A DNA stretch of 27,690 bases from the NCBI GenBank assembly GCA_039680575.1, contig JBDKSP010000116.1, positions 1-27,690 on the forward strand, in the 5' to 3' direction. Source of the DNA: Armatimonadota bacterium (GTDB taxonomy: Bacteria > Armatimonadota > UBA5829 > DTLH01). The position numbers and the translations under genes were made by a program. The notes under the pieces were generated by a model. The model was not told the origin of the DNA. It worked only from the letters and a program-made list of their open reading frames with translations, and did not search any database. Positions 24,909 to 27,690 of the stretch are shown here, in pieces (positions within the stretch are counted from its first letter, which is position 1; every line of letters begins with the position of its first letter).

Positions 24909-24938
24909 TTGACATGTTTTCCTTAGGAGTGCTAGACT
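24909..24938 (+). promoter_or_regulatory. Putative sigma70 promoter of the small membrane protein gene
   Basis: TTGACA-18 nt-TAGACT with TG extension. The -10 lies inside an imperfect inverted repeat CTTAGGAGTG..CACTCTAAG. Confidence 0.5.
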
Positions 24939-24967
24939 CACTCTAAGAAGAAAGGAGGGGATTGTTT

Positions 24968-25207
24968 ATGAAAAAACTAGCAAAGGGACAAGTTGACCAG
25001 ACTGTTCTTACTGTAGTCCTCATAGTTATAATTGTAGCTGCGATTGGATTTTTTATCTTCCAGTTAAAAGGAAACTCCTCCGATGCAGGTCAGCCTGGAG
25101 GATCGCCCGCAGCGCCTGCCGCCGGCACAACCGGTGGAGCAGCTCCCGCACCGCCTGGTACACCTGGATCAACCTTGCCTGCGCCTGTGCCTGCATCAGG
25201 CAGGTAG
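24968..25207 (+). CDS. Small single-pass membrane protein with Pro/Ala/Gly-rich tail; class III (prepilin-like) signal candidate
   Basis: Strong RBS AAAGGAGG. MKKLAKGQ, then a roughly 20-aa hydrophobic helix and a low-complexity tail; 79 aa. Confidence 0.75.
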   Translation: MKKLAKGQVDQTVLTVVLIVIIVAAIGFFIFQLKGNSSDAGQPGGSPAAPAAGTTGGAAPAPPGTPGSTLPAPVPASGR

Positions 25208-25220
25208 TACCTTCGGTTTT

Positions 25221-25249
25221 TTGACACTGCCTTTTGCATGTGATAAACT
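25221..25249 (+). promoter_or_regulatory. Sigma70 promoter of thiE-thiC
   Basis: TTGACA-17 nt-TAAACT with extended -10 TG. Confidence 0.75.
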
Positions 25250-25267
25250 GCGATTGATGCAAGTCAA

Positions 25268-25357
25268 ACCGCCAGGGGATGCTTTAAAAGCAAAGAAGCC
25301 CGTATATAATCGGGCTGACATTCCAACCTGAACCGGGTGTTCCGGTTGAAGAATGCG
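25268..25357 (+). promoter_or_regulatory. TPP riboswitch-like leader, non-canonical
   Basis: AGGGG..GGCTGA(C)A..TTCC-AACCTGA-ACCGGG.TGT.TCCGGT follows the THI-box element order. It lies between the promoter and a terminator ahead of thiE-thiC, but several invariant bases differ. Confidence 0.6.
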
Positions 25358-25371
25358 AAAAAGTTTATTAG

Positions 25372-25411
25372 AGCCGTAAATCCCGCCAATCGGGTTTGCG
25401 GCTTTTTTCTT
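25372..25411 (+). terminator. Leader intrinsic terminator (expression platform) before thiE
   Basis: AGCCGTAAATCC-CGCCAATC-GGGTTTGCGGCT (12 bp including G-U pairs), followed by TTTTTCTT. Confidence 0.85.
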
Positions 25412-25427
25412 GTGAACTGCGGGTGCG

Positions 25428-26087
25428 ATGAAATCGGATTCATTTTCTAAATTACCCAAACAGGTTATCACTGGTCTTTATGTCATCACCGACGGCAGGT
25501 TCGAGCCGGACCGGGGCCACATTGCCATTACCGCAGCCGCTATCGCAGGAGGAGCGCCCGTCGTACAGCTCAGGGAGACTAACCTGGCCGACCGGGACCT
25601 GCTGGAAGTTGCTCGACGCATAAGAACCCTCACGCTGGACGCCGGTATAACATTTATCATCAATAACAGGCTCGATATAGCAATCGCCTGCAATGCGGAC
25701 GGACTCCATATAGGCCAGGATGACTTTCCGGCAAGCGCAGCAAGGAAAATACTGGGACCGAGTGCAATTATAGGAGTCTCTACGAGTAACGTCGAAGAAG
25801 CATTAAAGGCCGAAACGGACGGAGCGGACTATGTCGGTGTAGGACCGGTCTTTTCGACGATGACCAAGCTGGACGCGGGTGAAGCAGTCGGGTTGGAAAC
25901 TGTGACCCGGATCAAGCAGGCTGTCCGGCTGCCCGTTGTGGCCATCGGAGGAATTTCTATCTCTAATATCCGCTCAGTGGCGCTTGCCGGAGCTGACTCG
26001 GCTGCAGTCATATCGGCGGTAACCGGTGCGCCCGACATGGCCGGAGCGGTAAAGGCTTTATCAGAGGAATTTCGACCCGGAAGCTAG
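25428..26087 (+). CDS. thiE: Thiamine-phosphate synthase
   Basis: LYVITD, VQLRE, ADGLHIGQDD, IIGVST, ADYVGVGPVF.T.TK, PVVAIGGI, AVISAV. Upstream of thiC. Confidence 0.92.
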   Translation: MKSDSFSKLPKQVITGLYVITDGRFEPDRGHIAITAAAIAGGAPVVQLRETNLADRDLLEVARRIRTLTLDAGITFIINNRLDIAIACNADGLHIGQDDFPASAARKILGPSAIIGVSTSNVEEALKAETDGADYVGVGPVFSTMTKLDAGEAVGLETVTRIKQAVRLPVVAIGGISISNIRSVALAGADSAAVISAVTGAPDMAGAVKALSEEFRPGS

Positions 26088-26120: not shown

Positions 26121-27410
26121 TTGACACAATTAGAGTCAGCGAAAGCTGGTATACTTACCCCCGAGATGAAAATGGTCGCGGAGAGCGAGCATGTCGATGT
26201 AGAAACAATCTTAAGGGGTGTTAAGTCGGGCAGGATTGTCATCCCGCGCAACGTGAACAGGAAGATGGCTTCGCCAAGAGGTGTCGGCGAAGGTCTCAAG
26301 GTCAAAGTGAACGCGAACATCGGCACATCGGCTGATTTTCCGGATATGGCGCCTGAGCTTGAGAAACTCCAAGTTGCACTCGATGCTGGTGCAGACGCCG
26401 TAATGGACTTAAGCACCGGCGGTGACATACTGAACATCCGAAAAGAGATCCTTTCGCGCTGCCCCGTGCCAATAGGCACAGTCCCGATGTATGAAGCAGC
26501 CGTCTCTGCAATCGAGCGCAAGGGTTCGATTGTCGATATGACCGAGGACGATCTCTTATCAGCCATAGAGCACCAGGCAGAGCAGGGAGTCGACTTCGTC
26601 ACCGTCCACTGCGGCGTGACGAGGGAGTCCATATCAAGGCTTCAGAAGCAGGGCAGGCTGACGGATGTGGTCAGCCGGGGAGGCGCGTTCCTCACCTGCT
26701 GGATGCTCGCAAACGAAAAGGAAAACCCGCTTTATCTCCGCTATGATGACCTGCTGGACATTGCAAGAAAGCACGACGTCACCCTTTCTCTCGGCGATGG
26801 GTTACGCCCGGGTTCTATAGCGGATGCAACTGACCGCGCACAAGTGCAGGAGTTGATAATCCTCGGTGAGCTCGTGCAGCGAGCGCGTGAAGCAGGAGTT
26901 CAGGCGATGGTCGAAGGACCGGGACATGTTCCGCTCGATCAGGTGGCAGCCAATATCGTTCTCCAGAAACGGCTCTGCGACGGAGCGCCGTTCTATGTTC
27001 TTGGGCCGCTCGTAACTGATATTGCTCCTGGTTATGACCACATCACATCGGCCATCGGAGGAGCGGTCGCGGCTATGTCGGGAGCGGATTTCATCTGCTA
27101 CGTAACACCGAGCGAGCACCTCGGCCTTCCGACGGTCCAGGATGTCCGTGAGGGAGTAATTGCCGCCCGAATTGCCGGCCATGCCGCGGATTTGGTAAGG
27201 CGCGTGCCGGGAGCGCGTGAGTGGGATGTAGCAATGTCCACAGCCCGCAAGGCACTGGATTGGAAGAAGCAGTTGGAGCTTGCAATCGATCCCGTCAAAG
27301 CCAGAGAGATTCGTGAAAAGCGCTGCACGCACGCGGAAGAGGCCTGCTCCATGTGCAGTTCCTACTGCGCTATGAAAGTCGTAGAGCAATATCTGGATTC
27401 GAGAAAGTAG
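26121..27410 (+). CDS. thiC: Phosphomethylpyrimidine synthase (short form)
   Basis: [73 protein letters not shown]-terminal CSMC...C Fe-S motif. TTG start with GGAGGT. Confidence 0.96.
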
Positions 27411-27417
27411 GAAGGAT

Positions 27418-27571
27418 TTAGGATTTAGAGGGATTCGTGCAATTTTTCTATGCTTCGGGACCGCAGTTCGTCCTACCCCGTGGACCTATTGGGCCACAGG
27501 AGTAGTAACCGTGGACCTACCGGACCACGGGGAGAAGCACAATTTTCTGAGATTCACCCCCTAAATCCTAA
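27418..27571. mobile_element. MITE-like composite palindromic element (family A copy interrupted by a second palindrome)
   Basis: Terminal inverted repeats TTAGGATTTAGAGGG (27418-27432) / CCCCCTAAATCCTAA (27557-27571), 14/15 match. Internal family A copy split by a 60-nt insert. Confidence 0.55.
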
Positions 27572-27600
27572 GTAGTCTCCGTTTCTAGTAGCAGCTATGG

Positions 27601-27652
27601 GTAGAGTCCGGCTCTTGCAGAGCCGATGGCCGGCACGGAGACCGGCCACTAC
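27601..27652. repeat. Pair of inverted GTAG-type REP sequences (REPIN-like)
   Basis: GTAGAGTC-CGGCTC-TTGCA-GAGCCG, and on the minus strand GTAGT-GGCCGG-TCTCCGTG-CCGGCC. Each is GTAG plus a hairpin. Confidence 0.65.
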
Positions 27653-27690
27653 GTCAAGCTGGCCTGCTATTAAGACAGGATGTTACTTAG

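Follow-up and report, generated by a model that had tools for sequence, protein, structure and literature searches.

A thiE-thiC leader of an Armatimonadota bacterium as a degenerate, probably ligand-blind descendant of a TPP riboswitch

When a leader RNA keeps the shape of a thiamine pyrophosphate (TPP) riboswitch and an intact terminator, and its ligand-binding core is altered, does it sense a different ligand or is it a sensor in decay? This question is raised by the leader of the thiE-thiC operon at positions 25256 to 25427 of the window, a stretch of 27,690 nucleotides (nt) that constitutes contig C116 of the 122-contig genome assembly G000 of an Armatimonadota bacterium. An earlier note, made from the letters of the window, had described a TPP-riboswitch scaffold with both sensor arms altered and had leaned towards a new ligand rather than decay. 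The description is supported by the analysis reported here and the preference is not. Judged by its sequence, the leader has degenerated from a known riboswitch and does not represent a new class. On sequence comparison and predicted folds, it is probably a decayed TPP aptamer that no longer responds to a ligand.

Seven homologous leaders were compared: that of the window, that of G001, the only congener in the collection (the genus comparison thus rests on two species), and five from outside the genus, namely from the sister genera G002, G004 and G005 and the metagenome lineages L024 and L041. At the same place these relatives have the same promoter frame and the same terminator, followed by thiE-thiC and then cdsA. 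The leader was found by blastn in five of the six genomes of the family, and a DNA search recovered it in 4 of 61 related genomes, G000 counted; the window leader matches the canonical leader of G004 with E = 2.7e-11. All five leaders outside the genus are canonical by the TPP model RF00059 of Rfam (release 15, 4227 models; gathering cut-off 54.3 bits), scoring 81.9 (G004), 74.5 (L024), 72.7 (L041), 70.5 (G002) and 69.9 bits (G005). The G001 leader reaches 46.3 bits, under the cut-off. Across the whole window no Rfam family passed its gathering threshold, and RF00059 gave no match on 25150-25500 even at E ≤ 10. A covariance model built from the aptamer and terminator of the five canonical leaders (hereafter R1) nevertheless matches the window at 25263-25409 (61.8 bits, E = 1.8e-15), as compared with 89.9 bits for G001 and 162-173 bits for its own training sequences. 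The terminator signature occurs in 5 of 401 phylum genomes sampled, all within this family, and a scan of metagenome contigs for it yielded 69 loci, five of which carry a TPP aptamer upstream, canonical in every case (L024 and L045, L041 and L049, and L038, whose leader reads as that of G004). The orthologous locus, the shared platform and the thiamine genes downstream show by comparison that the window leader descends from a TPP riboswitch.

Several other candidates in these searches were set aside. The remaining 64 terminator-signature loci in metagenome contigs have no relation to the leader, being hairpins that in many cases follow tRNA genes. Six weak Rfam matches to the window leader at E ≤ 10 (BcKCsr2, RybB, trpB, Trp_leader, PYLIS_4 and a snoRNA), mostly generic alignments to the terminator hairpin, were treated as chance. 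Overlapping open reading frames (ORFs) at 25083-25331 on the + strand and at 25196-25471 and 25264-25443 on the − strand are without support, and a leader peptide or minus-strand gene was rejected because the region aligns as RNA to riboswitch leaders.

What has changed within the aptamer? The relic occupies 25269-25358 (+ strand, as do all leader features given here) and consists of P1 (25269-25273 with 25354-25358), the P2 5' strand (25274-25277), P3 (25281-25291), the J3-2 relic AAAGA (25292-25296), P3a (25297-25316) and the P4/P5 arm (25327-25351). The motifs listed in the earlier note, AGGGG, two hairpins, AACCTGA and a CCGG/CCGG stem, are all present in the sequence, and one of its assignments had to be corrected. 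It had read the GCUGA/UGACA at 25316-25320 as the homologue of the pyrimidine-sensing UGAGA, whereas in a structure-aware alignment these letters fall on the UAACC that follows P3a in canonical relatives, and the true J3-2 homologue is AAAGA. The other substitutions are as first described: L5 is GUGUU (25337-25341) rather than of the UAAU type, J5-4 is UU (25346-25347) where relatives have CG, and P4 has AAG where they have AGG. In both the window and G001 the G of CCUG is kept and the former J5-4 loop is closed by A-U pairs. The window also retains the ACCUGA junction motif, the GGGG of P2 and the P3, P3a and P5 hairpins.

As published, J3-2 (U39-GAGAA) of the TPP aptamer contacts the pyrimidine ring through a hydrogen bond from G40 and stacking by G42 and A43, and A69 of L5 docks on P3 (PMC2018614). 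The highly conserved TPP positions reported in PMC3764141 are U39-A43, U59, A80, G60, C77 and G78, of which G60, C77 and G78 hold the pyrophosphate-binding metal. With thiM numbering mapped onto the window through the Rfam consensus, an inferred mapping, the window would have lost U39, G40, C77, G78 and the L5 adenines, and G001 only C77 and G78; the equivalents of A41, G42, A43, U59, G60 and A80 appear to be retained in the window.

Helix pairs were recounted on the seven true leaders, leaving out eight weak or opposite-strand rows of a 15-row alignment. The five canonical leaders keep 4-5 of 5 pairs in P1, 4/4 in P2, 3-4 of 4 in P3, 5/5 in P3a, 4/4 in P4, 4/4 in P5 and 11/11 in the terminator. 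The corresponding figures for G001 are 5/5, 3/4, 4/4, 5/5, 3/4, 4/4 and 11/11, and for the window 3/5, 2/4, 4/4, 5/5, 2/4, 4/4 and 11/11. In the window, P1, P2 and P4 together thus keep 7 of 13 pairs, and P3, P3a and P5 keep all 13. Because key nucleotides of both pockets and part of three junction helices are lost, the RNA is likely no longer a TPP sensor.

The kind and order of the changes point in the same direction. Sixty-nine aptamer columns are invariant in the canonical outgroup. Of these, 43 are unchanged in both genus members, nine are shared-derived, ten are private to the window, six are private to G001 and one differs in both. A single one-base deletion, to which the aligner gave different places in the two species, is counted as a private gap column of each. 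The shared changes convert the J4-5/J5-4 internal loop from AG/CG to AA/UU, giving a continuous AACCGG/CCGGUU helix, and rewrite the P2 3' strand and J2-4 from ACCCUUUG to ACAUUCC, as well as the linker. The window-private changes include the loss of U39/G40 (25292, 25293) and of the L5 adenines (25339, 25340), and convert G-C pairs in P4 (25350) and P1 (25358) to uncompensated C-A mismatches. By contrast, the G001-private changes keep or restore pairs: a C-G pair in P1 becomes U-G, a C-G pair in P3a becomes U-A with both sides changed, and a P2 G-C pair broken by the shared C-to-A change is restored as U-A. Canonical relatives with private, random changes were what the earlier note had given as the sign of decay, and this is largely the pattern found; nine changes are common to the congener alone and ten are private to the window. 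In a plausible order of events, the pyrophosphate pocket would have been closed in the ancestor of the genus, a state resembling published P4-P5 variants, and the pyrimidine sensor would have been lost later, in the lineage of the window species.

The genome of the window also offers an internal comparison. The only TPP element that a search of the genome recovers is a canonical one of 76.4 bits on contig C29, which precedes a gene for a Thi4-family thiazole synthase (PF01946, 7e-68). The thi4 riboswitches of G000 and G001 (L001:1501-1615 and L089:1501-1615) are 94% identical over 227 columns covering aptamer and promoter region, far above third-codon-position identity. Between the two species the thi4 aptamer differs in 1 of 98 columns and the thiE-thiC aptamer in 18 of 92 (14 substitutions, 4 gaps; Fisher p = 1e-5). 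This divergence is accompanied by equal branch lengths in a ThiC plus ThiE tree (0.068 for G000, 0.075 for G001) and by strong conservation of the genes themselves. The single-copy thiC (one match in the genome) is 96.5, 97.2 and 67.2% identical between the two species at codon positions 1, 2 and 3, respectively, which is the mark of strong purifying selection, and G000 further holds one thiD-type kinase and one Thi4 gene. By these sequence measures the thiE-thiC operon is in use, and transcription must pass through the leader.

Does the intact terminator speak for a working sensor, as the earlier note had argued? The intrinsic terminator lies at 25370-25408 and consists of a hairpin of 14 pairs (stem 25370-25405, -16.8 kcal/mol) and a U-run. 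It is identical to that of G001 at 37 of 40 positions, and 22 of 25 outgroup-invariant hairpin columns are kept in both genus members; the loop sequence differs among the seven leaders. As a rough estimate, neutral change of about 16% per branch predicts some three changes in the 17-nt 3' strand plus U-run, where one is seen. A more direct answer comes from G003, the only family genome without a leader match. Its thiE-thiC-cdsA operon is intact (ThiC 663 bits), and its one TPP element stands elsewhere in the genome (62.9 bits). Upstream of thiE are a promoter-like TTTACA-17-TACACT site, about 20 nt, a GCCGC...GCGGC hairpin with six U, and the start codon. RF00059 finds nothing in this leader at E ≤ 1 and no Rfam family fits it at E ≤ 10 beyond a generic terminator-like alignment, and R1 aligns the hairpin alone (7.7 bits). 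Since promoter and terminator hairpin persist here without an aptamer, an intact terminator is no proof of a working sensor, and the case against decay that the earlier note had built on it is weakened; the count of one change against about three expected points the same way, decay being compatible with an intact terminator. In a ThiC plus ThiE tree (unrooted, six taxa) G003 groups with the canonical G005 (support 0.97), apart from G000 and G001. The aptamer loss in G003 is therefore separate, making two losses in the family.

The leader of G003, a member of a sister genus, occupies L095:3458-3560 on the minus strand; the aptamer is wholly missing, and the hairpin stands about 20 nt before the start codon.

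Folding, of which all results are thermodynamic predictions, suggests what the altered leader may do. In the five canonical leaders and G001 the aptamer domain reaches its minimum free energy (MFE) as the TPP three-way junction; in the window it does so as a different structure. In the window 10.6 kcal/mol is needed to force the aptamer helices onto the pre-terminator transcript, as against 4.4-8.4 kcal/mol in the other six. The MFE fold of that transcript is instead a three-way structure closed by a helix of 16 pairs between 25276-25291 and 25363-25384, the latter being linker and part of the terminator 5' strand, and enclosing P3a and a long hairpin at 25319-25355. The 16-pair helix covers both ends of the terminator 5' strand and is therefore read as a predicted anti-terminator. 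The long hairpin, CAUUCCAACC...GGUUG-AA-GAAUG, is the CATTC-CAACC/GGTTG-GAATG pairing already proposed in the earlier note and borne out here both in the sequence and in predicted folds. It is built from what were the 3' strands of P2, P4 and P1 and is genus-specific: both arms are identical in G001, and it cannot form in the canonical relatives (judged by eye from the alignment). The energy difference between folds with and without the terminator does not separate the leaders, the window (-13.0 kcal/mol) falling within the range of the others (-10.1 to -14.9 kcal/mol). The region 25250-25430 as a whole folds modestly better than chance (z -2.53; 3 of 200 shuffles fold equally well).

Taken together, the leader may work as an attenuator that is blind to ligand. 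Lacking a pocket that would hold the aptamer fold together, the RNA would fall into the 25276-25291/25363-25384 anti-terminator during transcription, and read-through into thiE-thiC would occur at a constant rate, determined by how anti-terminator and terminator balance. Feedback by TPP would then be left to the canonical riboswitch before thi4.

Two further features of the leader were seen in passing. A promoter-like TTTAAA-16-TATAAT runs from the P3 loop to the P3a loop (25283-25310), with both hexamers identical in G001 and absent from the canonical relatives. Transcription from this site would leave out the anti-terminator 5' strand, and the match therefore looks accidental, the loops being rich in AT. 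In addition, AAUCGG(G/A) is common to the P3a 3' strand (25310-25315) and the terminator 3' strand (25390-25395), and the G/A difference between G000 and G001 occurs at 25314 and 25394 together, which could be coincidence or could point to P3a and the terminator exchanging strands.

A number of observations weigh against decay without function. Outside the aptamer, the leader differs between G000 and G001 in 3 of 106 columns, compared with 208 of 647 third codon positions of thiE and thiC (p = 8e-13) and with the 18 of 92 aptamer columns (p = 1.3e-4). The 106 columns comprise the 5' leader, linker, terminator and promoter segment, the last entered as 53 columns with no differences; as this segment truly has 4 mismatches and 3 gaps, 3/106 understates the differences. 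Even so, the non-aptamer leader is far better kept than neutral sites, and something in it is therefore still under selection. The aptamer itself is mildly better kept than third positions (p = 0.015), and its 3' half is nearly identical in the two species outside L5. Moreover, the private terminator changes at 25385 and 25394 jointly form a new CCCG/CGGG top and leave the stem unbroken, and an inserted A at 25279 lengthens the predicted anti-terminator. Finally, with only two species in the genus, the private changes cannot be shown to be unconstrained. The terminator-top changes, the inserted A and the conserved parts of the leader fit an RNA that is still doing something; taken alone they do not require a ligand, and they are compatible with one.

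Which ligand-dependent or other explanations could account for the same data? The TPP scaffold might have been re-specified as a working riboswitch, for example to a thiamine precursor or other pyrimidine, in which the UGACA after P3a would be a T-loop that has moved and the long hairpin of the genus would supply a new arm. An A-to-G change at 25317 indeed produces GGGCUGACA, similar to the canonical GC-UGAGA, in a leader whose original loop is gone. The strong conservation of promoter, linker, terminator and aptamer 3' half between G000 and G001 would suit such a switch, as would the compensated P3a pair, and new-ligand variants are described in other riboswitch classes (PMC6298564, PMC9295807). 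We hold this to be unlikely, as the state is seen in one species only: the search pattern ATTCCAACCTGANCCGG N3-12 CCGGTTGARGAAT returned one locus in genome contigs (in G001) and none in metagenome contigs. A conserved new core is lacking, since the would-be pocket positions, in J3-2 and L5, are exactly where the two genus members differ. P1, the switching helix, keeps three of five pairs and P4 and P2 two of four each, uncompensated, and with a relocated loop J2-4 would shrink to two nucleotides, with no spacer before P2 (by eye). In its full form, a sensor rebuilt on the TPP scaffold for a ligand other than TPP, with both pockets replaced, a T-loop-like UGACA and the long hairpin and anti-terminator beside it, has only a small chance of being right; if it were, the pyrimidine branch would be controlled separately from the thiazole branch, which has the canonical TPP switch. 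A low-affinity switch, reading thiamine, thiamine monophosphate (TMP) and TPP alike as a further step of the P4-P5 variant type, likewise strikes us as improbable. The closing of J4-5/J5-4 into a helix in the genus and the retained A41, G42, A43, U59, G60 and A80 equivalents (by the mapping given above) agree with it, and pyrophosphate-core TPP variants are stated to sense thiamin, TMP and TPP about equally well (PMC5473149). Such variants, however, need an intact pyrimidine sensor, whereas in the window A stands at both the U39 and the G40 equivalents and L5 has lost its adenines; nor is the aptamer fold the predicted ground state of the domain, and RF00059 is silent even at the most permissive threshold used.

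Control could also act through the hairpin itself, as the target of a protein or small RNA or as a terminator-embedded aptamer of the hydroxymethylpyrimidine pyrophosphate (HMP-PP) kind, which the earlier note had suggested. This would explain why the hairpin outlasts the decay of the aptamer in G000 and its deletion in G003, where the hairpin stands directly before thiE, and why its stem is nearly invariant in the family, as measured by the 22 of 25 invariant columns; HMP-PP riboswitches are described as embedded in terminators (PMC6478431). We nevertheless give it a slim chance. Apart from generic terminator-like alignments, no Rfam family matched the window or G003 leader at E ≤ 10; accordingly the covariance search proposed in the earlier note returned neither a TPP nor a thiS-motif match, the presence of a thiS model among the 4227 being unconfirmed. 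The loops differ in every lineage and do not suggest an embedded aptamer, and in the canonical leaders they appear complementary to the P1/P2 5' strand, as in an ordinary expression platform (by eye, from folds). HMP-PP riboswitches moreover are reported to switch genes on (PMC6478431), which for thiC would amount to positive feedback. That the odd bases are assembly or binning errors is conceivable for a metagenome-assembled genome of 122 contigs and has a negligible probability here. In another study, a 2710-nt contig of run X2 spans 25150-25500 and departs from the window at one position, 25422, which is outside the aptamer; contigs of runs X4 and X5 match 25272-25422 exactly. Because contigs from other studies reproduce the sequence, the leader is not an assembly error, and nine of its derived states are common to G001.

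A third related lineage is represented in run X2 by a 160-nt contig, aligned at 25395-25447. The terminator region of this contig is unlike those of G000 and G001, and its linker resembles that of their genus.

If the leader is indeed a decayed aptamer, this one locus would display successive stages of riboswitch loss within a single family: canonical in G002, G004, G005 and the two metagenome lineages, with the pyrophosphate pocket closed in G001, with both pockets and junction pairs lost in the window, and with the aptamer deleted and the terminator kept in G003. The second TPP riboswitch of the same genomes, which stays canonical, would be the internal control. The family would offer a test bed for how riboswitches die and which parts of the expression platform outlive the sensor, as well as for how the pyrimidine branch of thiamine synthesis runs without TPP feedback. 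For genome scans the case would be a caution, as a riboswitch-shaped leader with an altered core and an intact terminator need not mean a new ligand class.

The remaining parts of the locus are as follows. The earlier report of a promoter, a leader of about 170 nt and a terminator upstream of thiE-thiC holds in all three elements. The predicted sigma-70-type promoter (25221-25249) reads TTGACA-17-TAAACT with TG before the -10, and the frame TTGACA-N17-TAnACT was found by regular expression in all seven homologous leaders. Judged from the -10 position, transcription would start at about 25256, giving a leader of about 172 nt up to the thiE ATG at 25428. The segment 25208-25255 is identical to G001 in 41 of 48 aligned columns, the 4 mismatches and 3 gaps all lying upstream of the -35 hexamer; from that hexamer to P1 the printed alignment has no differences. 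A small 5' hairpin is predicted at the transcript start (25256-25265), the segment 25256-25269 is identical to G001 at 14 of 14 positions, and the linker (25359-25371) at 13 of 13. Downstream lie thiE, encoding thiamine-phosphate synthase (25428-26087, +; PF02581, 2.4e-61), and thiC, encoding hydroxymethylpyrimidine phosphate synthase (26121-27410, +; PF01964, 9.5e-201).

Just upstream of the leader promoter, an ORF of 81 amino acids (24962-25207, +) follows a promoter-like site at 24909-24938. It encodes an N-terminal hydrophobic stretch and a Pro/Ala/Gly-rich tail, matches no Pfam family, and is present in G001 with 73% nucleotide identity (90% at second codon positions). After thiC (27411-27690), where relatives have cdsA, the window has a repeat-flanked unit with 15-nt inverted repeats at 27418-27432 and 27557-27571 and two copies of a 23-nt palindromic repeat inside (27478-27500 and 27509-27531). 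The contig ends soon after; a small repeat element sitting where the assembly breaks off is one possible reading of the unit.

How does this leader compare with known systems? With canonical TPP riboswitches it shares the position before thiE-thiC, the promoter frame, the terminator and the P3, P3a and P5 hairpins; it differs in giving no match to RF00059, in having AAAGA instead of UGAGA, UU instead of CG and an L5 without AA, and in broken junction pairs, the junction not being the predicted ground state. A large collection of TPP variants with a mutated pyrophosphate-binding core is mentioned by McCown et al. 2017 (PMC5473149, citing Roth et al. in preparation). By that description, the paired J4-5/J5-4 loop of the window and G001 is alike. 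G001 keeps the pyrimidine sensor and junction pairs and is, by sequence, an otherwise intact aptamer as in those variants; the window is not, given its changes in J3-2, L5, P1, P2 and P4. In a literature search on decayed riboswitches and altered-specificity TPP variants, no TPP aptamer without a pyrimidine sensor was found. The HMP-PP riboswitch (thiS motif; Atilho et al. 2019, PMC6478431) resembles the window leader in belonging to the thiamine pathway and, as far as it is described there, in having the terminator hairpin as its best-conserved part. According to the same source its elements form a second terminator after a complete TPP riboswitch and are linked to hydroxyethylthiazole phosphate (HET-P) genes, whereas the window has a single terminator, of a TPP-type platform, with a loop that is not conserved across the family. 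Altered-specificity variants of the flavin mononucleotide (FMN; PMC6298564) and guanine-class (PMC9295807) riboswitches likewise carry a changed pocket on a retained scaffold. As these sources present them, however, they form conserved groups across species, whereas the changed core of the window leader is seen in one species and stands among helices that are no longer maintained.

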